A DNA stretch of 64,000 nt from a virus (lineage: Duplodnaviria; Heunggongvirae; Uroviricota; Caudoviricetes): IMG/VR virus record IMGVR_UViG_2585427970_000001. The stretch is one strand, 5' to 3'. The translations under genes and the position numbers were made by a program. Numbering within the stretch: position 1 is the stretch's first letter; each line of letters opens with the position of its first letter. Below the pieces are notes generated by a model, which was not told the DNA's origin, searched no databases, and saw nothing but the letters and a program-made list of their open reading frames with translations. Below are positions 1 to 17,770 of this stretch, one piece after another.

Positions 1-16
1 CAGTGTCACTTTTAAT

Positions 17-48
17 GCTGGTGGTGTGCGTCCCACCAGCATTTTTTT
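17..48 (+). terminator. Rho-independent terminator-like hairpin (8-bp GC-rich stem GCTGGTGG/CCACCAGC followed by a T-run)
   Basis: Stem 17-24 / 33-40 with loop 25-32, then ATTTTTTT at 41-48; probably ends a gene upstream of the window. Confidence 0.5.
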
Positions 49-538
49 CGTCCAATGGGGAGGGCATTTGAGTATTTTCAACAAACACGCACACCAGGAG
101 CGTCCGTACATCGTCATAGTCGATATTGATGGAGCAATATCAGAAGCAATTGAAGACAGGCTGCATTTGCTTCCGCTGCCGGGGAAAGGAGCATTAATAT
201 TGATATGGGGCACGTTTACACAGTCTGGTTTGTAACCGGGTGCTGTGAGAACGCCAGGGATAAAACACGAGCCTGGTTGCGGAAAAAATAACAAACGTAG
301 CCGAACTGTGCGACGGAGATGACAAAAGGAGGGTTACAAAATAAATCGGCTCAATAGACATTATCTGCAGTGGCGAAAGCTGTTTTGATACGGATATTGA
401 TGACGCTGATATTTCTGAATGGGGATCTCGGTGTCAGGTGCGAATCTATTATCTCCATTAAATGCCTGCTAGTCAGCAGGCATTTAATCTTCCTATTAGC
501 TTTCCGTTCATGCCTGGCATTTGCCAGTATGTCGGACA

Positions 539-769
539 TCATTTTTCGTATTCAGTTTGCGGACTGAGTTCAGCATCTACCCATAGTGTCTTCGCTCCCC
601 GTTGTGGCGGGCTTCTTCTAATTTTTCCGCTGTTTACCAGTTGTAAAAGATAATGCCTAGCCTGATAGCTGCTTATATTAAATTCTTTAGATATAGTAGG
701 TGTGTTTGTAAAGTTTTTTAATTTAATGTACAGATATATTGAATCCATCATGAATTCATTACCTTTCAT
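539..769 (-). CDS. PapI/FaeA-family small regulator (fimbrial-switch type)
   Basis: 76-aa ORF with ...SSYQARHYLLQLVNSGKIRRSPPQRGAKTLWV..., matching the PapI core ([31 protein letters not shown]) recalled from memory; divergent to the PapB-like gene. Confidence 0.65.
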   Translation of the reverse strand: MKGNEFMMDSIYLYIKLKNFTNTPTISKEFNISSYQARHYLLQLVNSGKIRRSPPQRGAKTLWVDAELSPQTEYEK

Positions 770-975
770 ATAGCTTTTATCGATAAGTATTATTAGTTAT
801 TCTGTTTATGGCCTTTAGTATATTTAGTCTTTTTTGCTTGCTTTTGATCTAGGTTAATAAAAGGTGCATTTTATAAACTTTTTTGTTTTTTTATTTTTAA
901 TTTATTTTATATTGCCGACAAAGTGTTATACCAGCATAAAATTCTAAATTTTATTTTCAATGTAGCACAATATTC

Positions 976-1479
976 ATGATATTTGATTTTTTTAGAGTTA
1001 AAGAACGTGTAATTATTTGTTTTCAGATTAAAAAACCTCTATTACTATCACGCACCGGAAAGGCTATGTTTTCGGCGAATGCTTATTACTTAAGATATTT
1101 ATTTAAATGCAACTGCGACGGGAGTAATCTGATGCAGCAAAGAGATACTTACCTTCAAGGGGAGCAAAGGCAGTTATTTCTTAGCAAGAAAAATCAGTAT
1201 CTAGCGATAGGAAAGGTTCCTGAAGATATATTCTGGTTGCTAGTGGAGATGTCAGCCATACGCAGTCAAGGCATCATAAAGGCATTGTATGACTATCTTG
1301 TTCTTGGTGATTCGAGAAAAGTTATCTGCGAGCGATACAATGTAAATAATGGATATATAAGTACCAGTTTATCTCGTCTGGAACGTATGAATGAAATGAT
1401 AAAAGAAATTATACCCCACCATGTAAAATGGTATGCGGACACCAATAATTACTGTGAATGCTGTGCGCGTGCTATATGA
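976..1479 (+). CDS. PapB/FaeB-family transcriptional regulator; true start may be internal (Met at 1066 or 1132)
   Basis: C-terminal ...ALYDYLVLGDSRKVICERYNVNNGYISTSLSRLERMN... resembles PapB (...AMKDYLVGGHSRKEVCEKYQMNNGYFSTTLGRLIRLN...); AT-rich upstream region. Confidence 0.7.
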   Translation: MIFDFFRVKERVIICFQIKKPLLLSRTGKAMFSANAYYLRYLFKCNCDGSNLMQQRDTYLQGEQRQLFLSKKNQYLAIGKVPEDIFWLLVEMSAIRSQGIIKALYDYLVLGDSRKVICERYNVNNGYISTSLSRLERMNEMIKEIIPHHVKWYADTNNYCECCARAI

Positions 1480-1784
1480 ATCAGAGAAGGACTGTCTATT
1501 CATAGATAAAATAATATCTATATAGGCATTTCTGCATGTTATAAAAATTGCACCTATAGCAATTGTGTTGGTAAACTATCTTTTTCGTTTATAAGGAGGC
1601 GTTAATAAAAAAGTCGCAACTAGGTGTTAATTTTTTTCACTATGTATCGGTTATGTGGTCTTGATGATAGTGAAAAGTTATGGATAAAGCTGACATTAAA
1701 TAATTATACAGATAACAAATTCTCAAAATATTATCTCATTGAGATTTTAACTGTAGCTGGTGCGGTAATTTACTGAAGGTATTT

Positions 1785-4700
1785 ATGAATAAAATATATA
1801 AAGTGATATGGAACCACAGTACTCAGCAGTGGGATGTGGTTTCAGAACTTACAGGTAACAAAAAAAAATGTAAATCTGCTCGCTTAAACCTGGCGTTAGC
1901 CGCTGCTCTTTTTACCGGATCTATGGCGGTTAATTGCAGCAGCGCATTCGCGGATATTTCTCTTGATTCGGCATGGCGTCCGGCACAGAACAACAACCTT
2001 GTTGGGGCCGAGACTGTTAACGGCACGACGGAAAATATCATAGGGCCGATATCGGTCGTTTCTGGTTCTTCTGGTCTCGTTGGCATGACTGTTGATGAAG
2101 CAAAAGCAGAGGGATACATTACGGCTGGGGATGATCTTACCGGATTATTATATATTGACACAGGCGGAAGAACCAAAGCCCTTCAGTACTGGGATGCTGC
2201 GACCGGCGCGTACAGAACGGTACAGGTATATGACAATGACGCTTTTTCTCAGCGGGCTGCAGGCTCATCTGCGAATGAACTCATTTCCGGTTTTGCGCCT
2301 GATGCTGGTTTTTTCTATAAAACCCGTTTTGTTACTGTAACCAATGGTGGTACGGCCAATATTGATGTTGGCGCAGATTTTATTGGTCGCTATTTCAAAG
2401 ATACTCAGCTCGCTGTTGCTGATGGAGCTGGATCAACTGTTAACTGGAATTCTGAAAATGAGTTCTACTTGCAGGCCGCAGCAACTTCTACAAACGGGCT
2501 CACATATACCGCCACAATTGACTCAAAAGCATATGCTGGCACATTTACTGACTGGCAGGGACAACAGCATCAGGTTAATTCACAGGCAGACTTACAGCAA
2601 TATAATGATTATCTGACTCAGGCGATTGTTGACGGTAAGCTGACTGCCTCTCAGTATGAGACTGAATTTAACAGGGCTATTATAACCACCACGCATACGT
2701 ATGATGTTGATCGTACTGCAGGGGGTAAAATTGATCCTGCTATATATCAGGCTGGTATCGGAACACTTGCTGTACTTGAAGCTAGAAATGGTGGAACTGC
2801 ACGACTCAGTTCAACCGGCAAATTAACAGGCATATTGCCGAGTGTTGGGCGTGGAGCTGGTATCATTGCTCGCTCGGGCGGTACAGGTATCAACGAGGGT
2901 ATTATAGATGCTACAGGTATTGCGATGCGTGCATACGGTAACAGCACCATTGTTAATGATGGCACTATCTATTCAGGGATCAACAATTCTAAACACGGAC
3001 GACATGGTGAGGGAATGGTGGCAATTGATGCCGATTCCCTCGCAATAAATAATGGTGTTATTAATATCCGGCCATATAAAGTTGCAACAGTTAATCAGGA
3101 TGGCATCAACACGGCAATGCTAGTGGCTGGTGGCGGTGAAGGAATTAATAATGGCACCATCAATATTACGGCGGATGCTTCAGTTATTGACAGTAAGGGA
3201 CTAACCCGGGGGATCAGTGTGGGTGACGGAGGTTCCTTTACCAATGCATCCACTGGCAAAATCACCGTCGGTGTGGCTGAAGATGGCAGCGCAGCGCATT
3301 CAGCTGTCGGCTCTGTTGCGATTGAGGTTGCGCAAGGGGCAACCCGTGTTATTAATGAAGGGACAATTCTCCTGGGGGAAGGGGCTCAGGGGAACTACGG
3401 TATTTCAGCATCGAACGTCGGAGCAGTAAATACAGTCATCAATAAAGGGACTATCACAGTTGAAGGGCATGACAGCGATACACCTGCACTGAATGTCGGC
3501 ATGTTTGCAAATAACAGCACCGGGCTGAAAAACACCGGGGTTATTAATGTGAATGGCCTGAACAGTGCCGGATTACAGGTCATAAACGGAGGCCAGATAG
3601 CGTCTGACGGTACTGTAAATGTTGGTGGCGTGGATATCAGTAGTGGTTTCCGTAACTATGGTGCATGGGTGGAAGGCACCGGAAGCCGTGTTGATATATC
3701 CGGCGAAATTAGCCTTACTGGTGACGGTGCAGTGGGGGTTTTTGCCAAAGATGGCGGAGACCTGACCCTGTCAGGGAATGGTGCGGTGGTATTCGGTGGC
3801 AGTAACCAGGTGGGGTTTTATGTCTACGGTGATGGTTCCACCATTCATAATACCGGGAACAGTGTTATGGATGTTTCCACCGAAAATTCAACGTTATTCC
3901 GTATTGCCAGCGGGGCGGTATACCGGGGGGGCACAGGGGCATCCTCTGATCTGACGGCATCCGGTAAGAACTCGTATGCGCTTGTTGCCACTGGCAGGTC
4001 TGACACAGGCACTGCCTCAACCGTCACATCCGGAGGGATGACCATCAACCTGACGGGAGAGGGGGCGACTGCTGTCTTGGTAGAGGGCGGGGCACAGGGC
4101 TCAATTGACAGTAATGCCACTATCAATATGGATAATGCCAGCGCGATTGCCGGTATTGCGGATGGCAACGGGTATGATATTTCCGGCAATCTTATTAATC
4201 CAAAAGACAAGACTACATTATTAACAGCAGGTGCTCAGCTGAGCTCTTCTCAGGATAAAGTAACCGGGTATATCGCCCGCAATGGGGCAACCCTGGAGAA
4301 CACCGGTAATATCACCTTTACCGGAAAGAACACGACCGGTATCCGGGTCGAGGAAGGCGCTGCTGGCACCAACAGTGGAAATATCCTCGTTCAGGATGGC
4401 GGTGTGGGATTACTTGCCCGCGGCTCACAGGACGCCACGACCATTAATAACACCGGTAATCTGGTCCTCAGTGGGGGGAATAATGCCAACCGTACTACCG
4501 GGATTAAAGCTTCCGGTGCAGCAACAACAGTTAATATGACCGCTGGCACACTCGATCTGCAGGGGCAGGGGGCGATTGGCGTTGAGGTCAGTGAACAGGG
4601 AACGGTGAATCTTGAGGGGACTGCCATTCCTAAGTTTGCTGCTGACGATTCCGGCATTACCGATCAGATTGCTTTCCGTATTATCGGAGATGGTGCAACC

Positions 4701-7700
4701 ATCAATACGAAGGTTGCACAGGGAACGCTGCTGGAAGCCAGTGGGCAGCGGTCAGTGCTCTTCCGTATTGAAGACGGGGCAAAACAGATTGGCTCTCTGC
4801 AGATGAAAACCTCCGGGACAGGCAGCCGGGGGATCTGGGCCACCGGTAAAGGCAGTGATGTACAGGCGGAGGCCGGCAGTGATTTCCAGATCCTGGGGGA
4901 CCTAGCTCAGGGATTGTATGTCACTGGCGGTGCAACAGCGACCCTGAAACAGGGGATATCCGTTGATCTTGTGGGTGACGGGGCCGTGGTCGCGGAAGTG
5001 GACGGTAATGAGTACGCGCTCGATGGCAGTATTACACAAACGAATACTGGCTCGGTTATTACCAATGAGGCAGATATCTCTTCGCCGCTGAATAATGCCA
5101 AGGGCTTTATTACGCGTAATCAGGGACTGTTGATTAACAGCGGCAACATTGATTTCACTGCCGGTACCGATAATATCGGCGTCTGGGTTGATAACGGTCG
5201 CTTTGAAAATACGGGAAACCGTATTGCGGTCAATGGTGTTGCTTTATTTGTTGAAGGCGCACAGTCTCAGATCACCAGCACGGGAGGGGATATCGTCGCT
5301 GTGGACGGTGAGGCTGCCATTAAGCTGGGGGCGGGCGCGTCACTGAACCTGGCAGGGAGTGGGCTGGGAACGATTGAGGGCCAGAAAAATGCACATGGCA
5401 TCCTGCTGGATACAGGGGCTGTGGGGCTGGTTATTGATGGTGCGAAAATTAATGTGAATGCTGCAGGTGCGGTTGGTCACGGGATTGAGAACCGCGCAGA
5501 AATTGAAGGCATTCAGTTAACCAATACGACTGAAATTAATGTGGCTGATGGCATTGGTGTGCGTACTTCAGCTTCGCTGGCTAAGACCAACAGCGGCACT
5601 ATTAATGTAGATGGCAGCGGAATTGCACTGGCGTTCCGGAAAGCTGACGGAAGTGAAACCGATAATAACCTGGATATGTCTGACTCCGGCGGATTAGTCA
5701 TTAATCTGAAAGGCACGGGCGGCACGGGTATTTTCGCCAACACTAAAGATGGTGCTGTCGTGAAGAGTGGTGCAAGTGTCAATGTTACACAGGCCGATGG
5801 CGGTTCCGCTCTGGTGGTTAACAATGCGGCCAGTGAAGTGGTTCAGAGCGGTAATCTCATTTCTGTTTCTCTGAATCATGCTGTAGTGGATGCATCAAAA
5901 GCACTGTCCTTTACCAATACAGGTCAGATTAAAGCCGCGTCCGCTGCCGGGACTGCAATGGCGTTTGATGACGCCGTGAATACCACCGTACTGAATGACA
6001 GCGGTGCTGAAATTCAGGGGGTTGTGGCTCTGAACGGCGGTGATAACACATTTACCAATAAAGGCAGTATTACCGGAACCGTCAGTGCAAAAGATGGCAA
6101 CAACACATTGTTATTTGATGACGGCAGCACACTGACAGGTGAAGCGACTGCAGGAAACGGCAATAACAATGTAACGCTTAACGGCAGGACACATGTTGAC
6201 CAGGTGATTGCAGGTACAGGACAGAATACCTTCACCATTAAAGGTGAAGGGGCAACCTGGGATCTGCTGGATGGCGGGCAGGGAGATTCTGATTCCCTGA
6301 TTTTTGATAACGCCATTCATACGCTGGATTCTGCTGCAAAGATACAGAACTTTGAACATGTCGGGCTGAAAAATGGTTCCGTTGTCACCCTGAAGGAGGC
6401 ACTGGTGCTGACGGACGGTGGCGCCGGGGCGGGCTCTGTCGATATTGAATCGGGCAGTGAACTGAGCATTACCCCTGCCACAGCAGGCGACTTTACCTTT
6501 GATCCATTGTTAACGGGCAAAGGCACGCTGTCCGCTCAGCTTGATGCCGACACCTCTGCTTTTGAATTCAGCCATAACGTCGGGGATCAGTTTGCCGGCA
6601 CCCTGAAACTGGGCACCAGCAGTTTTGCGCTGGAAGGGCTGAATACGAAGGGGTTGACCCATGCCATGTTGGTGTCTGAAACCGGAAATATCACAACGGT
6701 TGGCTCCGGTGTTCAGAGGATTGGCGGTCTTGGATTCAGTGGCGGAACACTGAATTTTGGTTCTGTCAGCCCGGGAGATATTGTTGCCGGCAACCGTATT
6801 GAAACCTCTGCCGCAGGTACACTGGATCTTCGCGGTCAGGGCACAATTCAGGTCACCATGCCGGTGGTGGTTAATGATATTCCGGTGGTTGATACCCGTA
6901 AGAATCTGCTTGAGCAGGACGATGCGCAGACCCTGGTCACACTGGTGGATGCTAAGGGAACCGTTACCGGCACCGGTGGACAGTTGCAACTGGTGGATGA
7001 AAATGGCCAGGTCATTTCTCACAGTCAGACGTTCGATGTGACTCAGGGCGGTGAAGTGGTGGCCCAGGGGAACTATGACTACAAGATGCTGGGAAGTTCC
7101 GACGGTATTAACGGTGATGGGCTGTATATCGGCTATGGCCTGAAATCGCTGAATTTGCAAGGGACAGGTGATAAAGCGCTGGTGCTGACCCCGAGAGCGA
7201 ACGCACAGGGGCTGCAGTCAGATCTCGGTGCTCAGTTAACGGGAACAGGGGATCTGGCGATAGACGCTGTGGGGCAGGTTGTCACACTGTCCAACGGTGG
7301 TAATAACTACACCGGTGATACGCTGGTGCGCAGCGGCACACTGCAGATGGCAAATGATAATGTGCTTGGCGCTACAGGCAGCCTGAACGTTGCCAGCAAT
7401 GCCGTCTTCAGAACAGACGGATACAGCCAGACGGTGGGTGCACTGCAGACAGAAACGGGAGCGCACATTCAGCTTGATAGCGGTAGTGTACTCACGGTCA
7501 GCGGCACGCAGCGTCAGCCGGGCGATAATAATGGTGGCATCATTGAAAACAATGTGCTGACCGGAGACGGTACGCTGGCTGTCACGGGCAGCAATCTGAC
7601 GGTACATGGCACCAATATCGGGTTCTCCGGTAATGTCAGCCTTACCCGGGGTTCGCTGGTTGAAATGAACGGCGCACAGGGGCTGGGAAGTCTGGGGACC

Positions 7701-9734
7701 GTCAGCTTTGAAAGCCTGAATGACCGTCTGGCGATTGATATCGCCGACGGTAGCGGAGTCAGCAGTAACCTGAGTAAATCGCTTTCCGGAGAAGGTTCAG
7801 TGGACATACTGAACACGACTGATCTGACGCTTTCCGGGGATAACAGTAATTTCAGCGGTGAATTCCGTGTGCAGAAAGATGCTGCTATGCGGGCTTCAGA
7901 TGAAAAACACCTGGGCACCGGGCTGATTGACAGCGAGGGTGTCACCTGGCTTACTGCCAGCGACAGCTGGTTGCTGAAAAATGACATTACGGGTTCCGGT
8001 GCGCTGGTGAAACAGGGGGCGGGTAATCTGATCATTAATCATGAGCTGGCTTATACCGGTGATACCACTGTTGAGAACGGTGTCCTGATTGTCGGTGATG
8101 ATTCAGTCACCAGCGCCGCTGATGCGACGCTGTCAGGCTCCGGAAATATTCATGTTCTCAATGGCGGCACACTCAGTGGGCAGGGTACCGTTGCAGGTCA
8201 TGTAAATAACCAGGGAACGCTGGCATCACTGAATGCACTTTCAGGCTATGAGAACGCAGAAGTAAGCAATTTTACGGTTGGCTCACTGACCAATACCGGC
8301 GTCATTCGTCTGGCCGGTGGTAAGACAGGAAATACCCTGACCGTAAATGGCGATTACACCGGTGGCGGTACGTTAATTATCAATACCGTGCTGGGGGATG
8401 ATACCTCTGCCACTGACAAATTGATTGTCACGGGTAACACTTCCGGCGATACCGGCGTGGTGGTGAATAACGTCCGGGGCCAGGGTGCTCAGACCGCTGA
8501 CGGCATTGAGATTGTGCATGTCGGTGGTCAGTCTGACGGTAACTTCAGACTGGAGAATCGTGCTGTGGCCGGGGCATGGGAATATTTCCTGCATAAAGGT
8601 AATGCGGGTGGTACCGACGGTAACTGGTATCTGCGCTCTGAATTGCCGCCGGAGCCGGGGACAAAACCGGAGACAAAACCGGAGACAAAACCGGAGACAA
8701 AACCGGAGACAAAACCGGAGACAAAACCAACACCGGATAAACCTGTGCAGACGGTCTATCGCCCGGAGGCTGGCTCATATATTTCGAACATTGCGGCGGC
8801 TAACACGCTGTTCAACACCAGAATGCACGATCGTGAGGGGGAAACTTACTATACCGACGTGTTTACTGGTGAGAAAAAAGCAACCAGTATGTGGATGCGT
8901 CATGTTGGCGGTCATAATCGCTGGAAGGACAGTAGTTCACAACTGAATACGCAAAGCAACCGCTATGTTGTGCAACTGGGTGGCAGCATTGCACAGTGGA
9001 CTGACGGTCAGGAGCGTCTGCAGCTGGGTATTATGGCCGGTTACGGGAATGAGAAGAGCTCCACGACATCCTCGGTTTCGGGATATAAATCTAAAGGCTC
9101 GATCAGCGGTTACAGTACCGGTTTATACGGAACGTGGCAGCAGAATGACGGCAATGACACCGGGGCTTATGTTGACACCTGGATCCAGTACGGCTGGTTT
9201 AATAATACTGTTAATGGTGAAAAACTGGCGGCGGAGTCCTGGAAATCCCGTGGATTTACCGGTTCAGTGGAAGCAGGTTATACCTTCAAAGCCGGCGAAT
9301 TTACCGGCAGTCAGGGAAGTCACTATGACTGGTATATTCAGCCACAGTCCCAGCTTACGTGGATGAATGTAAGAGCCGGCGAACATAAGGAGAAAAACGG
9401 CACGAAAGTTCAGCTTAACGGAGACGGCAATATCCAGAGTCGTCTGGGCGTCAGAACTTACCTGAAAGGTAAGAGTGCGTCTGATGACAATAAGGCGCAT
9501 CAGTTCGAGCCTTTTGTGGAGGTTAACTGGATCCATAATACACAGGACTGGAGTGTCAAAATGGATAATACGGTACTCAGTCAGGACGGAGCCACAAATA
9601 TTGCTGAAGTCAAAACGGGGGTTCAGGGTAAATTGTCAGACAACCTGAATATCTGGGGCAATGTTGGCGTTCAGGTCGGCGATAAAGGGTACAGTGATGC
9701 CCAGGCAATGCTGGGTATTAAATATACATTTTAA
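1785..9734 (+). CDS. Type Va (AIDA-I/Ag43-like) autotransporter adhesin, 2649 aa
   Basis: N-terminal extended signal peptide region MNKIYKVIWNHSTQQW...AFA; long Gly/Thr/Asn-rich beta-helix-type passenger; (PETK)n linker; C-terminal beta-barrel with YRPEAGSYI...MWMRHVGGHNRW... ending GIKYTF. Confidence 0.9.
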   Translation: MNKIYKVIWNHSTQQWDVVSELTGNKKKCKSARLNLALAAALFTGSMAVNCSSAFADISLDSAWRPAQNNNLVGAETVNGTTENIIGPISVVSGSSGLVGMTVDEAKAEGYITAGDDLTGLLYIDTGGRTKALQYWDAATGAYRTVQVYDNDAFSQRAAGSSANELISGFAPDAGFFYKTRFVTVTNGGTANIDVGADFIGRYFKDTQLAVADGAGSTVNWNSENEFYLQAAATSTNGLTYTATIDSKAYAGTFTDWQGQQHQVNSQADLQQYNDYLTQAIVDGKLTASQYETEFNRAIITTTHTYDVDRTAGGKIDPAIYQAGIGTLAVLEARNGGTARLSSTGKLTGILPSVGRGAGIIARSGGTGINEGIIDATGIAMRAYGNSTIVNDGTIYSGINNSKHGRHGEGMVAIDADSLAINNGVINIRPYKVATVNQDGINTAMLVAGGGEGINNGTINITADASVIDSKGLTRGISVGDGGSFTNASTGKITVGVAEDGSAAHSAVGSVAIEVAQGATRVINEGTILLGEGAQGNYGISASNVGAVNTVINKGTITVEGHDSDTPALNVGMFANNSTGLKNTGVINVNGLNSAGLQVINGGQIASDGTVNVGGVDISSGFRNYGAWVEGTGSRVDISGEISLTGDGAVGVFAKDGGDLTLSGNGAVVFGGSNQVGFYVYGDGSTIHNTGNSVMDVSTENSTLFRIASGAVYRGGTGASSDLTASGKNSYALVATGRSDTGTASTVTSGGMTINLTGEGATAVLVEGGAQGSIDSNATINMDNASAIAGIADGNGYDISGNLINPKDKTTLLTAGAQLSSSQDKVTGYIARNGATLENTGNITFTGKNTTGIRVEEGAAGTNSGNILVQDGGVGLLARGSQDATTINNTGNLVLSGGNNANRTTGIKASGAATTVNMTAGTLDLQGQGAIGVEVSEQGTVNLEGTAIPKFAADDSGITDQIAFRIIGDGATINTKVAQGTLLEASGQRSVLFRIEDGAKQIGSLQMKTSGTGSRGIWATGKGSDVQAEAGSDFQILGDLAQGLYVTGGATATLKQGISVDLVGDGAVVAEVDGNEYALDGSITQTNTGSVITNEADISSPLNNAKGFITRNQGLLINSGNIDFTAGTDNIGVWVDNGRFENTGNRIAVNGVALFVEGAQSQITSTGGDIVAVDGEAAIKLGAGASLNLAGSGLGTIEGQKNAHGILLDTGAVGLVIDGAKINVNAAGAVGHGIENRAEIEGIQLTNTTEINVADGIGVRTSASLAKTNSGTINVDGSGIALAFRKADGSETDNNLDMSDSGGLVINLKGTGGTGIFANTKDGAVVKSGASVNVTQADGGSALVVNNAASEVVQSGNLISVSLNHAVVDASKALSFTNTGQIKAASAAGTAMAFDDAVNTTVLNDSGAEIQGVVALNGGDNTFTNKGSITGTVSAKDGNNTLLFDDGSTLTGEATAGNGNNNVTLNGRTHVDQVIAGTGQNTFTIKGEGATWDLLDGGQGDSDSLIFDNAIHTLDSAAKIQNFEHVGLKNGSVVTLKEALVLTDGGAGAGSVDIESGSELSITPATAGDFTFDPLLTGKGTLSAQLDADTSAFEFSHNVGDQFAGTLKLGTSSFALEGLNTKGLTHAMLVSETGNITTVGSGVQRIGGLGFSGGTLNFGSVSPGDIVAGNRIETSAAGTLDLRGQGTIQVTMPVVVNDIPVVDTRKNLLEQDDAQTLVTLVDAKGTVTGTGGQLQLVDENGQVISHSQTFDVTQGGEVVAQGNYDYKMLGSSDGINGDGLYIGYGLKSLNLQGTGDKALVLTPRANAQGLQSDLGAQLTGTGDLAIDAVGQVVTLSNGGNNYTGDTLVRSGTLQMANDNVLGATGSLNVASNAVFRTDGYSQTVGALQTETGAHIQLDSGSVLTVSGTQRQPGDNNGGIIENNVLTGDGTLAVTGSNLTVHGTNIGFSGNVSLTRGSLVEMNGAQGLGSLGTVSFESLNDRLAIDIADGSGVSSNLSKSLSGEGSVDILNTTDLTLSGDNSNFSGEFRVQKDAAMRASDEKHLGTGLIDSEGVTWLTASDSWLLKNDITGSGALVKQGAGNLIINHELAYTGDTTVENGVLIVGDDSVTSAADATLSGSGNIHVLNGGTLSGQGTVAGHVNNQGTLASLNALSGYENAEVSNFTVGSLTNTGVIRLAGGKTGNTLTVNGDYTGGGTLIINTVLGDDTSATDKLIVTGNTSGDTGVVVNNVRGQGAQTADGIEIVHVGGQSDGNFRLENRAVAGAWEYFLHKGNAGGTDGNWYLRSELPPEPGTKPETKPETKPETKPETKPETKPTPDKPVQTVYRPEAGSYISNIAAANTLFNTRMHDREGETYYTDVFTGEKKATSMWMRHVGGHNRWKDSSSQLNTQSNRYVVQLGGSIAQWTDGQERLQLGIMAGYGNEKSSTTSSVSGYKSKGSISGYSTGLYGTWQQNDGNDTGAYVDTWIQYGWFNNTVNGEKLAAESWKSRGFTGSVEAGYTFKAGEFTGSQGSHYDWYIQPQSQLTWMNVRAGEHKEKNGTKVQLNGDGNIQSRLGVRTYLKGKSASDDNKAHQFEPFVEVNWIHNTQDWSVKMDNTVLSQDGATNIAEVKTGVQGKLSDNLNIWGNVGVQVGDKGYSDAQAMLGIKYTF
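8655..8726 (+). repeat. 6 x 12-bp in-frame tandem repeat (CCGGAGACAAAA) encoding (PETK)n in the autotransporter linker
   Basis: Direct read: one CCGGGGACAAAA unit followed by five CCGGAGACAAAA units. Confidence 0.9.
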
Positions 9735-9781
9735 TCACATAGTGGCAGGAGGATCCCTCCTGCCACATCCGGGTAGTCATA

Positions 9782-10324
9782 ATGAGTTCTGTAATGAAAT
9801 TTTCTGTTGCTAATGCAGTATTGTTGCTGTTGCTGATTGGATTTACTGGTGTTATTTATATGAATAAATCAAAAGAAATTGCAGTTGTTAATATTGATGC
9901 TGTTTATAATCAGTCTTCTGCCGGAGAACTGGTCAGAACGCATCTGAGTGAAGTTAAGATTATTCTTGAAAAGGGATACAAGGATGCGCTAAAAGCATTC
10001 GCAGATAATGAAAATAAAGATGTGCTGCTTCTTGATGCCAGACAAAAACTGGAAAGACAATATGTTATCGAGGAGCACAATGCAAAGATGGTATTATCCC
10101 GTGCAATAGATAATGCCATAAATAACTGGAGAAAAGATAACACAGGAAATATTGCTGTATTGTCTTCAGGTGTTGTGCTTTCACATAACGATTCAGCCGA
10201 TATCACAAAAGAAATCATGGCTCTGGTTGAAAAAGAACATCTGGTTTTTAGTCAGTTACCGAAAGTGGAAGTGAAAGCTCAGGAGGAGATAAAAAGTAAA
10301 GAGGGAACGGAAGAAGGTAAATAA
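9782..10324 (+). CDS. Skp/OmpH-like periplasmic chaperone (alternative start at 9794)
   Basis: N-terminal hydrophobic signal/anchor, then a charged coiled-coil-like body (...EIAVVNIDAVYNQSSAGELVRTH...NIAVLSSGVVLSHNDSADITKEIMALV...) typical of OmpH-family chaperones; sits directly after the autotransporter. Confidence 0.55.
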   Translation: MSSVMKFSVANAVLLLLLIGFTGVIYMNKSKEIAVVNIDAVYNQSSAGELVRTHLSEVKIILEKGYKDALKAFADNENKDVLLLDARQKLERQYVIEEHNAKMVLSRAIDNAINNWRKDNTGNIAVLSSGVVLSHNDSADITKEIMALVEKEHLVFSQLPKVEVKAQEEIKSKEGTEEGK

Positions 10325-10361
10325 TCATTAGTTCCCGGTAACGTCTGTTAAGGCGATTCAC

Positions 10362-10402
10362 AAGCCGGTATCTGTTATCACTCAGATACCGGCTTGTTGT
10401 TG
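10362..10402 (+). terminator. Terminator-like hairpin after the Skp-like gene
   Basis: AAGCCGGTATCTG / AGATACCGGCTT inverted repeat followed by a GTTGTTG tract. Confidence 0.45.
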
Positions 10403-10577
10403 AGTCCGGGAACCGTCCGGCAACAGCGTCAGATATCAGGGGGAGAAAGACTGGTTCAGTAACGTTATCATCTTCGGACTCAAATTCTGATAAATGACAG
10501 GGATATGCGACATGCATTACTTAACGTATACCATCTGTAGTCAGATAAAAATTTATCTTTGATGTGGGGAATGACAT

Positions 10578-10964
10578 ATGGAAATGAAAAAAAACATTTG
10601 CTATATAAAGAGCGAAATAAAAGAGCATAGTATTACTGTTCACCTGTGGGTATTTGCATCGCTGACAAAAATTGAGTGTGATGTGCTTGAGTTAATAATG
10701 AAAGGGTATAGCTCTACAAAAATATCACACCTCCGGAATCGTAGTGATAAAACTGTATCGTCACAAAAGAGACAGATATACAAAAAACTGGGTGTCCGAA
10801 ATGATCTTACATTCTGGATTGATATTTTTTTGTCACCATCGATAAGAACAGTTTTTTACCGGAAAGGGGACGTTGTTCACATAGGAAATGAAATTTTCGG
10901 AATGTCCGGTGATGCATTAAAGCTTTGGAATAATTCACTGAACACATCACCGGACAAAAAGTGA
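10578..10964 (+). CDS. LuxR/GerE-type HTH regulator (HTH-only, 128 aa)
   Basis: ...LTKIECDVLELIMKGYSSTKISHLRNRSDKTVSSQKRQIYKKLGV... matches the LuxR-family HTH pattern. Confidence 0.55.
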   Translation: MEMKKNICYIKSEIKEHSITVHLWVFASLTKIECDVLELIMKGYSSTKISHLRNRSDKTVSSQKRQIYKKLGVRNDLTFWIDIFLSPSIRTVFYRKGDVVHIGNEIFGMSGDALKLWNNSLNTSPDKK

Positions 10965-11034
10965 GTATTAATAATTACTGCTGTATCAGTTTGAAGAAGG
11001 TTTAATTAACAAACTGGTTATCATATACACGCCG

Positions 11035-11064
11035 GCTCAGACCGGCGATTTCTTTTTTGTATGT
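11035..11064 (+). terminator. Rho-independent terminator (CGCCGG-loop-CCGGCG, then T-run)
   Basis: Perfect 6-bp GC stem at 11035-11040 / 11047-11052 followed by ATTTCTTTTTTG. Confidence 0.7.
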
Positions 11065-11259
11065 AGATCTTCTATGCTTCTCACGTGTTTGTGAATTAAA
11101 ACACCTAAAGGTGTTAAGCGCTAGCAAGAAGGAGGGTGGTGGCAGTAATGTTGTATTTGGCATGCTCACTCACATAATCAATGACGCAAGAAGTGGGAAA
11201 TTTTATGATTGTCCGGTTATTTAATACGCAAAGAGCTGGTGCTTTATGCCTGTGAAGTT

Positions 11260-11290
11260 TATAATTGTGTACACATGACGAGTACACGAG
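11260..11290 (+). promoter_or_regulatory. phd-doc promoter/operator: TATAAT -10 followed by palindromic Phd operator half-sites (TGTGTACACA, GAGTACAC)
   Basis: TATAAT at 11260-11265; perfect 10-bp palindrome at 11266-11275 and a related site at about 11280-11287, immediately upstream of phd. Confidence 0.6.
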
Positions 11291-11296
11291 GTGTTT

Positions 11297-11518
11297 ATGC
11301 AATCCATTAACTTCCGTACCGCGCGCGGCAACCTTTCTGAAGTGCTCAACAATGTTGAAGCCGGGGAAGAGGTTGAAATCACCCGCAGAGGCCGTGAGCC
11401 AGCAGTAATTGTCAGCAAGGCTACTTTCGAAGCCTACAAAAAAGCGGCGCTGGATGCTGAATTTGCATCCCTGTTTGACACCCTGGACTCCACCAACAAG
11501 GAACTGGTTAACCGATAA
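11297..11518 (+). CDS. phd: Phd antitoxin (prevent-host-death), P1-type
   Basis: Matches P1 Phd as remembered: [73 protein letters not shown]. Confidence 0.95.
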
Positions 11519-11898
11519 TGAGGCATATATCACCGGAAGAACTTATTGCGCTTCATGATGCGAATATAAACCGCTACGGCGGCCTGCCGGGAATGTCAGA
11601 TCCGGGTAGGGCAGAGGCCATTATCGGGAGAGTTCAGGCCAGAGTTGCCTACGAAGAGATCACCGACCTTTTCGAAGTCTCCGCCACCTACCTGGTGGCT
11701 ACAGCGAGAGGGCATATATTCAATGATGCCAATAAGCGTACCGCGCTAAACAGTGCGTTGTTATTTCTACGCCGTAACGGGGTGCAGGTATTTGATTCAC
11801 CTGAACTGGCAGACCTTACCGTAGGGGCTGCGACCGGAGAGATATCTGTATCTTCTGTCGCCGACACGTTACGTAGATTGTATGGTTCCGCGGAGTAG
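11518..11898 (+). CDS. doc: Doc toxin (death on curing; Fic-fold kinase)
   Basis: 126 aa, [22 protein letters not shown]...; ATG overlaps the phd stop (TAATG), the classic phd-doc arrangement. Confidence 0.95.
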
Positions 11899-12082
11899 AT
11901 TAATGGCACGTAAATACAACAAATTGTCCCGTGAAGCGTTAAAGATGCTTCTTGATGGCGTGAGTCGCCGCGAGGTAAAGCAATACCTGGTTGGTAAGCA
12001 AATTGGAGCCAGGACTGCTATTGCTGTGTTATGCCGTCAGGAAATGGTTGTGCTTAAACAGAGAATGCCGGGCAGCAGATAA
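11882..12082 (+). CDS. Small post-doc protein (P1 PdcA-like by position)
   Basis: 66-aa ORF immediately after doc; named by synteny with P1 only. Confidence 0.35.
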
Positions 12083-12109
12083 AGCCCAATCAGTGATGAA
12101 AGGTGTGAT

Positions 12110-13153
12110 GTGAAAGCCGTAATTACTCCCTTTGTACAAAAAGAGCTTGGCGTCGCCACATTCAAAGTGGATCAGGAAGTCAGAAAGCTGGTGGAGGCTG
12201 GCCGTAAATTTATTATGGAGCCGGTGCCGCGTGAGTTAATCGAGCACATGGACGACGGCCTCGTTGTTTCCGAGCAAACCATGGCAACAAATGAGGCGTT
12301 GCAGCCGTTTTTTAACAGCGATGAGCTGTTTCGTCGTATTGGTGGAATTGACGCGCTGGTGGCGTGGTTGCGCAGGAAAGAGGGGCGATGCCAGGCCGCA
12401 GATCGTAGTTGGTGTGACAACCATATTGTCCACGCTGAACGAGACAATAGCGCGGTGTTGCTGTGCTGGCATCACGATAACCATTACTGGATGCGTGGTT
12501 TTAATGAGCTGAAAGAAACGCTGCATAATAATCGCGTTAACTGGATACTGGATGTCGCCCGTCAGGAAATGGGGCTTTCAGATGGCTATGATTTAAGTAT
12601 TCAGGAACTGTGCTGGTGGGCTTTCATGCGCAACATGATGCACCTGATGCCGGAAGAAGTTTGCCGTATATCAATAAATAAGATGAAGGCTGCTCCGCAG
12701 GATAGCGGACCTTTGAAAGAGGCGGATATTCGCCCGTATGACGATCGTGCTACAGCATATGTTCAGATGATGGAAGAACGCGCCGCGCCGATGCGTGCAA
12801 AAGTATGCCCTGTGGATGTTGACTCCGACCCTGGCACGGCGCATTTCAAAATACCAAAACTGCAATCGCTAAAATTACCTGAGTACATGGACTTTGTTGC
12901 TTCCCGTCCATGCTGTGGGTGTGGAGCGGCGGGAGCTGGCGCTCACATTACGCCTTATATCGTTCGTCATAGTCGATTATGCGCGCATGACATTTACGCA
13001 ATTCCTCTGTGCCAGTCATGCCAGCGTGATATTGAGCGTGACCGCGATAATTGGGAGAAGACGCACGGTAGGCTGGCGATGCATCAACGATTGTTCTTTG
13101 ATTACGCGCTTGGAGTCGGCGCTATCACAAGTCACTCGTCTAGCGTTAGATAA
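12110..13153 (+). CDS. Post-doc protein (P1 PdcB-like by position), Cys-rich C-terminus
   Basis: 347-aa ORF between doc and lpa; C-terminal CCGC...CQSC cysteine cluster; function unknown. Confidence 0.45.
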
Positions 13154-13154
13154 A

Positions 13155-13171
13155 ATTGCTCTAATGTATTG
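13155..13171 (+). promoter_or_regulatory. C1 operator-like site (14/17 to ATTGCTCTAATAAATTT) upstream of lpa
   Basis: ATTGCTCTAATGTATTG; the conserved ATTGCTCTAAT core is present. Confidence 0.45.
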
Positions 13172-13241
13172 CTATTTCTTTAATCGATGGTATTATATTC
13201 CACGTTGATTAGTTGACATGGGCTAATCAGTAGGTGACAGG

Positions 13242-13694
13242 ATGTTACTTAACTGGCAGGGACGCCACTTCATGGAAATAAATCACTCACGAATAACATC
13301 GTATGAGATTGCGGATTACATGATCCGCACTAAATCTCTTCTATCAGCGAAAGAACTCGCAGCAATTCTTGAAAAGGAATACCCGCATCTGGATGTCGAT
13401 AAGCGCGATGTTTATCTGCGCTTAAAGGCTATCGCTGTGTCTAAGTATTCGTCTGTTTTGATTGATGACAGTACACGCCCACGTAGATTTCAGATCCACT
13501 CTCTGAATCCTGAATTCTTTCGCCGTAGCCGCGCTCCGCGCCGGTTTGATGAAAAACTCCAGAACGAACTCTATATGACGCAGGACGAAAAGGAACGCCG
13601 GGAGCACCAGCCTTGGGTAATGGCGCGTCAACTTTTCAATAAGGTGGCCCGTCAGCACCGTCATTACGGTAATGCCACATCCGCACGTATCTGA
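13242..13694 (+). CDS. lpa: Late promoter activator Lpa-like protein
   Basis: 150-aa basic protein in the P1 position between pdcB and pacA, preceded by a C1 operator-like site. Confidence 0.55.
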   Translation: MLLNWQGRHFMEINHSRITSYEIADYMIRTKSLLSAKELAAILEKEYPHLDVDKRDVYLRLKAIAVSKYSSVLIDDSTRPRRFQIHSLNPEFFRRSRAPRRFDEKLQNELYMTQDEKERREHQPWVMARQLFNKVARQHRHYGNATSARI

Positions 13695-13779
13695 TTGATT
13701 GCTTGCCCGTTCCGGGCCTTTTGACATGTGACTTTCGTTACCCTCGCGTCAAAAAGAGTTTTTACGAAAGGAAGCATAA

Positions 13780-14973
13780 GTGACCTGGGACGATCACAAG
13801 AAGAATTTTGCTCGCCTGGCGCGAGATGGTGGTTACACCATCGCACAGTATGCCGCCGAGTTTAATCTTAACCCTAATACCGCACGTCGTTATCTCCGTG
13901 CCTTCAAAGAAGACACCAGGACTGCGGACAGCCGCAAGCCAAATAAGCCAGTCAGGAAGCCACTAAAAAGCATGATCATTGATCACTCTAATGATCAACA
14001 TGCAGGTGATCATATTGCGGCTGAAATAGCGGAAAAACAGAGAGTTAATGCCGTTGTCAGTGCCGCAGTCGAGAATGCGAAGCGCCAAAATAAGCGCATA
14101 AATGATCGTTCAGATGATCATGACGTGATCACCCGCGCCCACCGGACCTTACGTGATCGCCTGGAACGCGACACCCTGGATGATGATGGTGAACGCTTTG
14201 AATTCGAAGCTGACGATTACCTGATAGATAACGTTGAAGCGCGGAAGGCCGCGCGCGCTATGTTGCGTCGGTCCGGGGCCGATGTTCTGGAAACCACTCT
14301 TCTTGAAAAGTCTCTTTCTCATCTCCTTATGCTGGAGAACGCCAGGGATACGTGTATTCGCCTGGTGCAGGAAATGCGCGATCAGCAAAAAAACGATGAT
14401 GAAGGTACTCCGCCTGAATACCGTATCGCGAGCATGCTAAACAGCTGTTCCGCGCAGATAAGCAGTCTGATCAACACCATTTACAGCATCCGGAATAACT
14501 ATCGAAAAGAAAGCCGGGAGGCGGAAAAGCACGCTTTATCTATGGGGCAAGCTGGCATTGTTAAGCTGGCATACGAACGAAAGCGTGAAAATAACTGGTC
14601 AGTGCTGGAAGCAGCTGAATTCATCGAGGCGCATGGCGGGAAAGTGCCGCCCCTGATGCTGGAGCAAATCAAAGCCGATCTGCGTGCTCCTAAGACCAAT
14701 ACCGATGATGAGGAAAGGCAAACTGCCGTCGGTGGCCCTTCTCTTGAAGATCTGGACAAAGTTGCGCGAGAACGGGCCGCCAACCGCCGCGCCGATGCCG
14801 CATTGTGGATTGAGCAACGTAGGGAAGAAATCGCCGATATCGTTGATACAGGCGGTTATGGAGATGTTGATACTGAAGGTGTATCAAACGAACCATGGCT
14901 GGAACAAGACCTGGACGAAGACGAGGAGGAAGACGAAGAAGTTACCCGCAAGCTATACGGGGATGATGATTAA
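13780..14973 (+). CDS. pacA: Terminase small/pac-recognition subunit PacA (GTG start)
   Basis: 397 aa; contains the pac-type clustered TGATCA/G hexamers in its 5' part; followed directly by pacB. Confidence 0.8.
13971..14160 (+). promoter_or_regulatory. P1-type pac site: two clusters of Dam-methylatable GATC hexamers (4 + 4) flanking the presumed cleavage region
   Basis: GATC at 13974, 13981, 13993, 14008 and at 14104, 14117, 14127, 14154, all in TGATCA/G-type context. Confidence 0.7.
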
Positions 14974-15358
14974 TGGCCAGAAGTTGCGTAACGGATCCAC
15001 GTTGGCGCGAGCTGGTGGCGCTATATCGTTATGACTGGATTGCGGCCGCTGATGTTTTGTTCGGCAAAACACCTACCTGGCAGCAGGATCTGATTATTGA
15101 GTCTGTGCAGGAACAGGGTAGCAAGACATCTGTTTCGTCTGGTCACGGTACCGGGAAATCAGACATGACTTCTATCATGATCATGTTGTTCATAATCATG
15201 TATCCCGGTGCCCGCGCCATTATCGTTGCGAACAAAATTCAGCAGGTAATGACCGGTATATTCAAGTACATCAAGATAAACTGGGCTACTGCCACCAGCC
15301 GTTTTCCATGGCTTGCTGATTATTTTGTTCTGACAGAAACCGCTTTCTATGAGGTTAC
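14973..15358 (+). pseudogene. pacB: pacB (terminase large subunit), 5' fragment interrupted by an IS element
   Basis: Reading frame ...ETAFYEVT runs straight into the IS left inverted repeat at 15359. Confidence 0.85.
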
Positions 15359-15412
15359 TGAACCGCCCCGGGAATCCTGGAGACTAAACTTCCTGAGAAA
15401 GAGGTAAACAGG

Positions 15413-15739
15413 ATGACTAAAAATACTCGTTTTTCCCCCGAAGTCCGTCAACGGGCAGTCCGTATGGTTCTGGAAAGTCAGAGCGAATATGACTCACAAT
15501 GGGCGACAATTTGTTCCATTGCTCCAAAGATTGGCTGTACGCCGGAGACTCTGCGTGTCTGGGTTCGCCAGCATGAGCGGGATACCGGGGGCGGTGATGG
15601 AGGGCTCACCACCGCTGAACGTCAGCGTCTGAAAGAGCTGGAACGTGAAAATCGTGAACTGCGCCGCAGTAACGATATCCTTCGCCAGGCTTCCGCTTAT
15701 TTTGCGAAGGCGGAGTTCGACCGCCTCTGGAAAAAGTGA
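15413..15739 (+). CDS. IS3-family transposase OrfA (HTH)
   Basis: 108 aa, [23 protein letters not shown]...; leucine-zipper-like C-terminus. Confidence 0.9.
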
Positions 15740-16626
15740 TGCCACTGCTGGATAAGCTGCGTAAGCTGTACGGGGTCGGACCGGTATGCAGTGAACTACA
15801 TATTGCCCCGTCAACGTATTACCACTGTCAGCAACAGCGACATCATCCGGATAAACGCAGTGCCCGTGCGCAGCGCGATGACTGGCTGAAGAAAGAGATA
15901 CAGCGCGTATACGATGAAAATCACAAGGTATACGGTGTGCGTAAAGTCTGGCGTCAGTTGTTACGGGAAGGTATCAGAGTGGCCAGATGCACTGTGGCAC
16001 GTCTCATGGCGGTTATGGGACTTGCCGGTGTTCTCCGGGGTAAAAAGGTCCGTACGACCATCAGCCGGAAAGCCGTTGCCGCAGGCGACCGCGTAAACCG
16101 TCAGTTCGTGGCAGAACGACCTGACCAGCTGTGGGTGGCTGATTTTACTTACGTCAGCACATGGCGGGGCTTCGTCTATGTGGCGTTCATCATTGATGTG
16201 TTTGCCGGATACATCGTGGGGTGGCGGGTCTCATCGTCCATGGAAACGACATTCGTGCTGGATGCACTGGAGCAGGCGTTATGGGCCCGTCGACCGTCCG
16301 GCACGGTCCATCACAGTGATAAAGGTTCTCAGTATGTATCGCTGGCCTACACACAGCGGCTTAAGGAAGCCGGATTACTGGCATCAACAGGAAGTACAGG
16401 CGACTCGTATGACAACGCGATGGCGGAGAGCATCAATGGTCTTTACAAAGCGGAGGTAATACACCGTAAGAGCTGGAAAAACCGTGCAGAAGTGGAACTG
16501 GCCACACTCACGTGGGTGGACTGGTATAACAATCGACGATTGCTGGAAAGGCTGGGCCATACTCCTCCGGCAGAAGCAGAAAAAGCTTATTATGCTTCCA
16601 TCGGAAACGATGATCTGGCAGCCTGA
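15736..16626 (+). CDS. IS3-family transposase OrfB (DDE catalytic domain), expressed by -1 frameshift as OrfAB
   Basis: 296 aa with an integrase-type core (...[10 protein letters not shown]...[15 protein letters not shown]...); overlaps orfA in the -1 frame. Confidence 0.9.
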
Positions 16627-16668
16627 GTTCACAGATAAAACACTCTCCAGGAAACCCGGGGCGGTTCA

Positions 16669-17770
16669 TACTGGTAAAGGTGTATGGACTGTAGTACCGA
16701 AGGGCTTTCGTCTGGGAAGTGAAGAAGCTCTCGCCGGTGAACACGCAGATCATCTTCTGTATATTATCGATGAAGCCTCCGGTGTCAGTGATAGAGCTTT
16801 CGGTATCATCACCGGTGCTCTTACCGGACAGGATAACCGCATCTTATTACTGTCACAGCCTACACGCCCAAGCGGCTATTTCTACGATACTCACCATAAA
16901 CTGGCCAAGCGTCCTGGTAACCCTGATGGCGTTTATACGGCGATCACGCTTAACAGTGAGGAATCACCGCTGGTAACGCCAGCATTTATCAAAATGAAGC
17001 TGGCGGAGTACGGCGGGCGCGATAACCCTATGTACATGATTAAGGTACGCGGCCTATTCCCTAAATCACAGGATGGCTTCCTTCTTGGACGTGATGAGGT
17101 TGAACGTGCAACGCGGCGGAAAGTCAAGATTGCCAAAGGATGGGGCTGGCTTGCATGTGTGGACGTTGCTGGTGGTACGGGAAGGGATAAGTCCGTTATC
17201 AATATCATGATGGTGTCCGGCCAGAGAAATAAACGCCGTGTAATCAACTATCGAATGCTGGAATACACAGACGTTACAGAAACGCAGCTTGCCGCCAAAA
17301 TTTTCGCAGAATGTAATCCTGAGCGATTCCCAAATATCACCATAGCGATAGACGGCGATGGGCTGGGTAAAGCAACAGCGGATCTGATGTACGAGTATTA
17401 TGGTATTACCGTACAGCGTATACGCTGGGGTAAAAAGATGCATAGCCGTGAAGATAAGAGCCTGTACTTTGATAAACGTGCTTATGCCAACGTTCAAGCC
17501 GCAGAGGCCGTAAAATCTGGTCGTATGAGACTGGATAAGGGTAATGAAACTATTGAGGAAGCGTCGAAAATCCCTGTAGGGATTAACTCCGCAGGTCAAT
17601 GGAAGGTGATGAGTAAGGAGGATATGAAGAAAAAACTCAACCTGCACTCACCAGACCATTGGGATACATATTGTTTCGCTATGCTGGCGGATTATGTTCC
17701 CCAGGACGAAGTGCTTAGCGTCGAAGACGAAGCGCAGGTTGATGAAGCTCTTGCATGGCTTAATGAATGA
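16669..17770 (+). pseudogene. pacB: pacB, 3' fragment
   Basis: After removing the IS and one TAC copy the frame reads through continuously (...FYEVT|[12 protein letters not shown]...); the two parts sum to about 496 aa. Confidence 0.85.

Follow-up and report, generated by a model that had tools for sequence, protein, structure and literature searches.

An UpaE-type autotransporter behind a fimbrial PapI/PapB-type regulatory cassette on a P1-like phage-plasmid

The pap (P pilus) switch depends on the methylation state of two intergenic GATC sites (PMC4921776). PapB and its relatives FocB and TosR bind AT-rich DNA as oligomers, activate at low dose and repress at high dose, and counter silencing by H-NS and Lrp (PMC5956150). 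In the tos operon there is a precedent for a PapB-family protein in control of a non-fimbrial adhesin whose operon ends in LuxR-type genes (PMC5956150 and its reference 20, PMC4187811): TosR, together with H-NS and Lrp, controls the adhesin TosA, and the LuxR-type proteins TosE and TosF suppress motility (PMC5956150). Among autotransporters, UpaB is controlled by the LuxR-type proteins AutA/AutR (PMC4844996), and UpaE of uropathogenic Escherichia coli (UPEC) CFT073, a surface-located protein that promotes biofilm formation and binding of extracellular matrix (ECM), is co-transcribed with the LuxR-type gene ipuR from a promoter on ipuS, a 260-bp invertible element with 7-bp inverted repeats which is flipped by the tyrosine recombinases IpuA/IpuB and others (PMC6083910). 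Here we describe a locus in IMG/VR record IMGVR_UViG_2585427970_000001, a stretch of 64,000 nucleotides (nt) of Caudoviricetes DNA (hereafter the window), in which a divergent pair of PapI-like and PapB-like regulator genes stands in front of an UpaE-family autotransporter gene, a Skp-like gene and a LuxR-type gene on the backbone of a P1-like phage-plasmid. The five genes are as follows (aa, amino acids; ORF, open reading frame; HTH, helix-turn-helix).

539–751, minus strand: PapI/FaeA-family regulator, 70 aa (ORF open back to 769; Pfam FaeA, E=7.5e-16).
1132–1479, plus strand: PapB/FocB-family regulator, 115 aa (longer ORF from 976; Pfam PapB, E=3.7e-27).
1785–9734, plus strand: UpaE-family type Va autotransporter adhesin, 2649 aa (ESPR, AC_1, PATR; TIGR01414 barrel, E=3.4e-119).
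9782–10324, plus strand: Skp/OmpH-like protein with an N-terminal hydrophobic helix (Pfam OmpH, E=0.0044, below cut-off).
10578–10964, plus strand: stand-alone LuxR/GerE-type HTH protein, 128 aa (Pfam GerE, E=1.2e-10).

Overall, these genes probably form a self-contained recombinant adhesin module under PapB/PapI-type, methylation-independent control of a TosR-like kind; the structural and evolutionary part of this explanation is well supported, and the regulatory part is what we infer from it and from the described systems. The closest functional analogue is the tos operon (tosR-tosCBD-tosA-tosEF), which likewise has a PapB-family gene 5' of a non-fimbrial adhesin gene and small LuxR-family genes 3' of it. 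Its adhesin, however, is not a type V autotransporter but an RTX protein whose export goes through a type 1 system, and the operon has no PapI partner; neither GATC nor PapI is mentioned in the tos paper (PMC5956150). The likeness of the window's LuxR-type protein to TosE and TosF would be one of operon position, by analogy. With pap the locus shares divergent PapI/PapB-family genes and an AT-rich spacer of about 400 bp, but it lacks the paired GATC sites (0–1, not conserved), and the gene placed under the pair is that of a type Va autotransporter rather than those of chaperone-usher pili. By descent, the locus stands closest to that of upaE and to a K88/Pef-like fimbrial operon.

All five ORFs of an initial annotation made from the sequence were present at the same coordinates in the ORF listing, and its gene identities (PapI-like, PapB-like, autotransporter, Skp-like, LuxR-type) are supported by family searches and, for the Skp-like protein, by fold comparison. 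The PapI-like protein scores 58.7 bits against the PF04703 winged-helix profile (cut-off 20.7) and matches the nuclear magnetic resonance structure of PapI (PDB 2HTJ) with E=5.6e-7, and the PapB-like protein scores 94.6 bits against PF03333 (cut-off 29.4) and matches the FocB crystal structure (3M8J) with E=4.5e-19, so that both profile searches proposed in that annotation are positive above the gathering scores. Reading of the gene order bears out that the divergent pair fronts an autotransporter gene instead of chaperone-usher genes. The proposed 2649-aa AIDA/Ag43-type autotransporter was recovered by the domain searches with its whole architecture, namely an ESPR extended signal peptide, PATR repeats, a type 1 autochaperone domain and a beta-barrel. 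It shows 83% identity and 90% positives over 2650 aligned positions to WP_097398726.1, named 'phase-variable autotransporter adhesin UpaE' by the Prokaryotic Genome Annotation Pipeline (PGAP), and on this comparison with a PGAP-named UpaE the adhesin is an UpaE allele.

The front end of the module and its body have separate relatives, which meet at a short joint.

487–1569, unstranded: regulatory cassette consisting of the papI-like gene, the intergenic region, the papB-like gene and a 90-bp 3' spacer, common with a chaperone-usher fimbrial operon.
1570–1774, unstranded: recombination joint between the cassette and the upaE-type genes, 205 bp, indel-rich and variable among modules.

The cassette is 80–81% identical in nt sequence to four fimbrial loci (L007–L010), and this homology stops at 1569, 90 bp past papB. 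The closest PapB relatives outside the module (P0003) share 88% aa identity and stand in a context of a divergent faeA-like gene, a 380-bp spacer, papB, and then genes for a 182-aa major subunit, an usher, a chaperone, a DsbA-like protein and a minor fimbrial subunit, which is a K88/Pef-like (kappa-type) chaperone-usher operon. This operon thus has the same geometry as the window's front end, is also without GATC, and has a DUF805 gene downstream, but it differs in carrying subunit, usher, chaperone, DsbA-like and minor subunit genes after the cassette. Nucleotide homology to upaE loci, on the other side, runs from 1775 (10 bp before the ATG) to 10403 (past the OmpH-like gene), and everything upstream of the adhesin gene has therefore been exchanged. 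Sequence comparison thereby shows the module to be a recombinant of a K88/Pef-like cassette (487–1569) and an upaE-ompH pair (1775–10403). The CFT073 upaE locus (ipuA/ipuB-ipuS-ipuR-upaE; Battaglioli et al. 2018, PMC6083910) shares the adhesin type and the OmpH-like gene downstream. A LuxR-type gene is associated with both loci, but that of the window lies downstream and is no homolog of IpuR beyond the HTH; the window has neither ipuS, ipuR nor nearby tyrosine recombinase genes, has the PapI/PapB cassette upstream instead, and differs from upaE loci in the N-terminal 500 aa of the passenger, which are much more divergent (64–76% nt identity).

The fimbrial operon lies in the same type of island as the module of E. 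coli SY038, with GTPase, AlpA-like and YagK/YfjJ-type genes upstream and DUF805 downstream, and SY038 DNA 0.5–1.3 kb past the luxR-like gene (L003 19104–19900, including the DUF805 gene) matches the post-fimbrial DUF805 region of L008. Because this DUF805 flank is shared, the chromosomal autotransporter, Skp-like and LuxR-type genes stand, between papB and DUF805, exactly where the fimbrial operon has its structural genes.

The block is, by these sequence comparisons, a recurrent module which is found in chromosomal islands as well. It is present on three P1-like plasmids (the window, pAPEC201602 and GCA_042581045), on the chromosomes of SY038 (two tandem copies), GCA_024608665, GCA_045573185 and GCA_907175235, and on several metagenome contigs. 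It is rare: the regulatory region occurs in 2 of 5,426 complete E. coli genomes and in 1 of 72,556 PLSDB plasmids. A chromosomal homolog of the autotransporter occurs in about 250 of the same 5,426 genomes, and the records listed annotate UpaE and then an OmpH-family gene; an OmpH-like gene always follows upaE-type genes. Between the window and the chromosomal copies, identity is 93–100% over the autotransporter body, OmpH-like and luxR-like genes, 88–93% in papI, 84–86% in papB and 72–74% in the spacer. In the papB tree, the autotransporter-linked alleles do not form a clade apart from the fimbria-linked and orphan alleles, and this together with the mosaic of segment identities indicates more than one round of re-assortment between front ends and bodies.

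In each of the eight module copies examined, neither regulator gene is disrupted, and the order and orientation papI-papB-autotransporter are invariant. The ratio of nonsynonymous to synonymous substitution rates (dN/dS) is 0.05–0.10 for papB and 0.06–0.12 for papI at synonymous divergence (dS) of up to ~1, which at the sequence level means strong purifying selection on both regulators; because dN/dS is low despite such dS, they would not be decaying passengers.

Several further observations concern these genes and their relatives. In SY038 (NZ_CM185151.1, L003), the tandem papI-papB-autotransporter copies lie at 8040–18527 and from 22048 onward, with DUF805 and insertion sequence (IS) remnants between them; the locus as read ends inside the second autotransporter gene, and the two N-terminal parts are only ~80% identical. 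Orphan PapB paralogs (L011–L014, L019–L025), 81–87% identical in aa sequence to that of the window, stand beside EAL-domain and AraC-type regulator genes, some on IncF plasmids near a Pef-like operon and others in integrase-bearing islands near yicI/yicJ-like genes, forming a small network without adjacent structural genes. The first 1.5 kb of the autotransporter gene (1785–3296) is far more variable among alleles (64–98% nt identity) than 3297–9734 (86–100%), which suggests that the distal tip of the passenger has diversified or been exchanged between alleles. Autotransporter lengths among the copies are 2641, 2645 and 2649 aa, and these differences may reflect variation in the copy number of a repeat before the barrel.

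8655–8728, plus strand: in-frame 12-nt tandem repeat, 6.2 copies with 98% matches, encoding a (PETK)n linker before the barrel.

In the record of the 88-kb Escherichia phage GER2 (MG710528.1, L002), an UpaE homolog at 4284–12775 is split into two coding sequences annotated 'long tail fiber proximal subunit' and is followed by an OmpH-like gene; this looks like a misannotation, and the region may be chromosomal flank in a prophage record.

The module is flanked by P1 sequence on both sides.

1–297, plus strand: conserved end of the P1-type backbone, with the pmgS-pap spacer and a truncated 5' part of the P1 pap (phosphatase) gene.
298–486, unstranded: left junction DNA (sole PLSDB match, the sister plasmid pAPEC201602).
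11144–11898, plus strand: P1 backbone resumes with the humD end, phd (11291–11518) and doc (11518–11898) (Pfam PhdYeFM and Fic/DOC).

Positions 1–197 are 89.8% identical to P1 83721–83916 (the end of pmgS and the start of the pap phosphatase gene), and homology to the '3'-phosphatase' gene of other P1-like plasmids extends to about window position 297; the conserved regulatory cassette starts at 487–533, to the right of the junction DNA. From 11144 on, which corresponds to P1 87893 at the end of humD, the window is 96.3% identical to P1 87893–89749, and its remainder (12–64 kb) is 96–98% identical to P1, P7, SJ46 and RCS47. With collinear high identity on both sides of the block, phd and doc present, and a circular IncY sister record, the backbone is P1-like (Punavirus), and the placement of the block as cargo directly upstream of phd-doc, as first proposed, is upheld. 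The comparison with P1 alters the extent of the proposed replacement: it is not confined to hot/lxr/humD but runs back into the pap phosphatase gene, so that ~10.85 kb of cargo stands in place of ~4 kb of P1 backbone from pap to humD (pap (3' part)-pmgT-pmgU-pmgV-upfMNO-hot-lxr-humD). On this sequence evidence, a P1/P7-type phage-plasmid carries the adhesin module as cargo for lysogenic conversion, in the variable region that precedes phd-doc. Other P1-like phage-plasmids (SJ46, RCS47, IncY plasmids) have the same backbone at 96–98% identity and also vary in content upstream of phd-doc (acyltransferase, IS1, other genes), but the cargo here is a regulated adhesin module.

The limits of the intergenic region have to be settled before its sites can be counted.

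752–1131, unstranded: AT-rich divergent promoter region, 380 bp, 27% GC, of equal length in the fimbrial cousins.
846–849, unstranded: sole GATC of the regulatory region, not conserved (the only GATC between 428 and 1917).
932–946, unstranded: candidate Lrp-consensus-like site, the only one-mismatch match to YAGHAWATTWTDCTR in the 64-kb window.

The region was initially taken as 770–975, and this is corrected here to 752–1131. The PGAP starts in near-identical sister records correspond to window positions 751 (papI-like, 70 aa) and 1132 (papB-like, 115 aa), the GGGAG before the ATG at 1132 is invariant among homologs, and in most homologs (L003c1, L028, L007–L009) the longer ORF from 976 would be thrown out of frame by a 1-nt gap and additional indels. 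For these reasons the true starts are most likely 1132 and 751, and 752–1131 is the real spacer. Ten spacers were aligned (three from P1-like plasmids, three from chromosomal module copies, four from fimbrial cousins), and GATC was additionally counted in two further chromosomal copies, giving 12 spacers in all. The alignment shows conserved blocks at about 775–805, 868–890 and 995–1040. The site at 932–946 is the best match in the window to the Lrp consensus of the SELEX type (systematic evolution of ligands by exponential enrichment), but it is a single match and such scans are unspecific in AT-rich DNA; this block is partly conserved among homologs.

The divergent PapI/PapB pair with its pap-like 380-bp spacer, the GATC at 846–849 and the Lrp-consensus-like site at 932–946 might suggest canonical Pap-type epigenetic phase variation, in which Lrp with the PapI-like protein moves between sets of sites and Dam methylation locks the ON or OFF state; it was under Dam/Lrp phase variation that the initial annotation placed such regulator pairs. 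This now appears very improbable. The pap switch has two intergenic GATC sites (PMC4921776), the window has the single one already noted in that annotation, and 10 of the 12 regions, including five chromosomal module copies and four fimbrial cousins, have none, against a chance expectation of ~0.9 GATC per 380 bp of this base composition. Among the ten aligned spacers GATC occurs at 846 in the window and L018 only, and the other eight read GATT, including that of the 99.4%-identical sister plasmid pAPEC201602 (L001); GATT is likewise the reading for the five chromosomal copies and the four fimbrial cousins. The window's GATC is thus a strain-specific T-to-C single-nucleotide polymorphism. The context of GATC in pap is ACGATC, and the window's site reads TTGATC. 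Downstream, autotransporter, Skp-like and LuxR-type genes stand in the place of chaperone-usher structural genes. The defining feature of the pap switch, its two intergenic GATC sites, is absent from the locus and from its whole regulator clade, which has no conserved methylation target, and because the region holds no conserved GATC, we infer that the heritable Dam-methylation imprint of pap cannot operate here. The sequence thus already largely refutes a Pap-type Dam switch, and the suspicion that the control logic differs from that of pap was right, and more strongly so than it was put.

A different objection would accept the recombinant structure and deny the regulators their role: the pair might be a hitch-hiking fimbrial remnant, with the autotransporter genes using a promoter of their own in the joint at 1570–1784. 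The joint is indeed of separate origin and variable, PapB paralogs that stand alone, with no structural genes beside them, are common in related islands and on IncF plasmids, and autotransporters are often single-gene loci. The intactness and strong constraint of both regulators described above speak against this, as do the invariant gene order and orientation and the result of a scan of the joint at 1570–1774, which found no terminator-like structure separating papB from the autotransporter gene; moreover, the autotransporter-linked papB alleles are not monophyletic, so that the pairing must have been kept or re-made through several recombinations. We regard a hitch-hiking pair as rather unlikely. 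That the whole block is an assembly artefact, with host chromosomal island DNA misjoined to phage-plasmid DNA, was a case that the initial annotation named as fatal to its own reading, and the occurrence of the same module in chromosomal islands with 93–100% identity over the autotransporter body would lead one to consider it. The same block with the same junctions is, however, present in the complete, circular, 102-kb IncY plasmid pAPEC201602 (97.9% identity) and in a 97.6-kb contig of a third strain (GCA_042581045), where both junctions (~297–487 and 11010–11144) recur at 98–100% identity, and the remaining window is of P1 type as given above. Because two other P1-like plasmids share the junctions, misassembly is ruled out for practical purposes, and the likelihood left to it is negligible.

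Other modes of control were considered and set aside. An ipuS-type invertible promoter was rejected, as upaE homology starts only at 1775, there is no recombinase gene and the LuxR-type protein is not IpuR. A repeat search of 430–1900 for an invertible element gave short AT-rich matches at chance level with no flanking recombinase gene, and no recombinase gene is found among the ORFs of 1–12000. Slipped-strand switching was likewise rejected, since the sole tandem repeat in 1–12000 is the in-frame 12-nt PETK array, which cannot shift the frame. No Rfam element matches in 1–13000. Control of the cargo by the P1 C1 repressor was dismissed for want of a match to the C1 operator within 1–12000, and the cargo is therefore not obviously repressed in the lysogen.

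Under the PapB/PapI-type, methylation-independent control that we favor, transcription would start in the AT-rich 380-bp papI-papB region and run through papB into the autotransporter gene and probably on into the skp-like and luxR-like genes; the gap between the autotransporter and skp-like genes is 47 bp. The PapB-like protein would act as a dose-dependent autoregulator and as an anti-silencer on AT-rich DNA, like PapB, FocB and TosR, and the PapI-like protein would modulate this control, possibly via Lrp, without methylation memory. Heterogeneity between ON and OFF states, if any, would then have protein feedback as its only source. For the 2649-aa passenger and barrel, the Skp-like protein is a plausible dedicated periplasmic holdase, and, if TosE/TosF and motility are a guide, the LuxR-type protein at the 3' end may link expression of the adhesin with other genes.

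Several points weigh against this explanation. A scan for sigma-70-like promoters gave no more sites than shuffled sequence, and such promoter and terminator scans were abandoned as a guide, being uninformative in AT-rich DNA with no excess over shuffles. A separate promoter for the autotransporter gene could lie in the variable 205-bp joint at 1570–1774, and the regulators would then not be needed. A PapI homolog would have to act here without GATC-containing Lrp sites, and the support for an Lrp site consists of one consensus match in AT-rich DNA. The Skp assignment comes from a medium-confidence model (predicted local distance difference test score, pLDDT, 73.7) with Foldseek E values of only ~0.01. 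The targets proposed for the LuxR-type protein are a matter of pure analogy, and IpuR itself is without phenotype in CFT073 (PMC6083910).

The reading of the 180-aa product of the fourth gene as a Skp-like chaperone is favored by a fold comparison of medium confidence, and the OmpH profile supports it only weakly, at 17.7 bits against the PF03938 cut-off of 32.4. Its AlphaFold2 model has strands at 32–37 and 124–129 and long helices within 46–119, and the top ten Foldseek matches in the PDB are all Skp/OmpH structures (1SG2, 1U2M, 4KQT, SkpA), with E values from 0.012, probabilities of 0.84–1.00 and template-modelling (TM) scores of 0.27–0.72. A link to Skp at the sequence level was tried and given up, as a profile search of PDB sequences with this protein found no Skp; the fold comparison alone supports Skp.

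The LuxR-type HTH gene downstream is confirmed, with 41.3 bits against PF00196 (cut-off 23.5), and domain searches of the 128-aa protein found no receiver or autoinducer-binding domain. An identification with IpuR was rejected, as homology to IpuR does not extend beyond the HTH. Homologs of at least 94% identity follow autotransporter-OmpH genes wherever the context was read, and the protein is 59% identical to a 126-aa HTH protein encoded after another autotransporter gene (L004/L005), so that an autotransporter with a small LuxR-type gene seems to be a recurring pair. In those two ordinary upaE loci (positions 1–3745), a smaller second autotransporter gene lies upstream, followed by the 126-aa LuxR-type gene and then an EAL-domain gene. 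The window's LuxR-type gene is followed by a possible terminator.

11030–11056, plus strand: terminator-like GC hairpin with a T run after the LuxR-type gene.

Some features of the flanks touch the module less closely. A hairpin with a perfect 14-bp stem and 4-nt loop at 457–488 (ATTAAATGCCTGCT/AGCAGGCATTTAAT) lies at the left edge of the conserved regulatory cassette and could be a terminator of the papI-like gene or a recombination scar. A 63-aa ORF at 351–542 on the minus strand was taken as spurious, having no family match and lying mostly (351–486) in the junction DNA left of the cassette. Two tight GATC clusters at 13974–14155 inside pacA (four sites at 13974–14011, then 14104, 14116, 14127 and 14155) match the P1 pac cleavage site in position; they are real Dam targets unrelated to the adhesin.

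In the literature searched, three things appear to be new: a PapI and PapB pair that fronts, and may control, a type V autotransporter, a GATC-free PapI/PapB clade, and such a module on P1-like phage-plasmids. No account was found of PapI/PapB upstream of an autotransporter or of an autotransporter on a P1-like phage-plasmid, which is weak evidence, as subscription journals were poorly covered. Already known are each gene family, the UpaE adhesin, non-fimbrial adhesins under a PapB-family regulator (TosR) and autotransporters with LuxR-type partners, and RefSeq automatic annotation already names the individual genes correctly; the locus thus implies no change of paradigm.

Overall, the module is a clean natural example of the swapping of a regulatory module between adhesin classes. 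An UpaE-type adhesin can be fronted by an invertible promoter, as described for CFT073, or by a fimbrial PapI/PapB cassette, as here; in the two ordinary upaE loci L004 and L005 it stands behind an ipuR-like gene, with no recombinase genes annotated in the 6 kb read upstream. With a PapI/PapB clade that is free of GATC, one has to ask how a PapI homolog works where the methylation-sensitive Lrp sites, its known place of action, are missing. It is conceivable, although we think it distinctly unlikely, that the cassette is a portable, methylation-independent bistable switch which has repeatedly been plugged in before pili and a type V autotransporter, giving lysogens heterogeneous UpaE-type adhesion, with products that cross-regulate host fimbriae and flagella. 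If so, it would be a phage-borne regulator of host surface phenotype and would point to a function of PapI independent of GATC sites. Finally, a transducing phage-plasmid in avian and human E. coli is a candidate route for the horizontal spread of an adhesin and biofilm factor, and the regulators carried with it could interfere with the fimbrial and motility circuits of the host.

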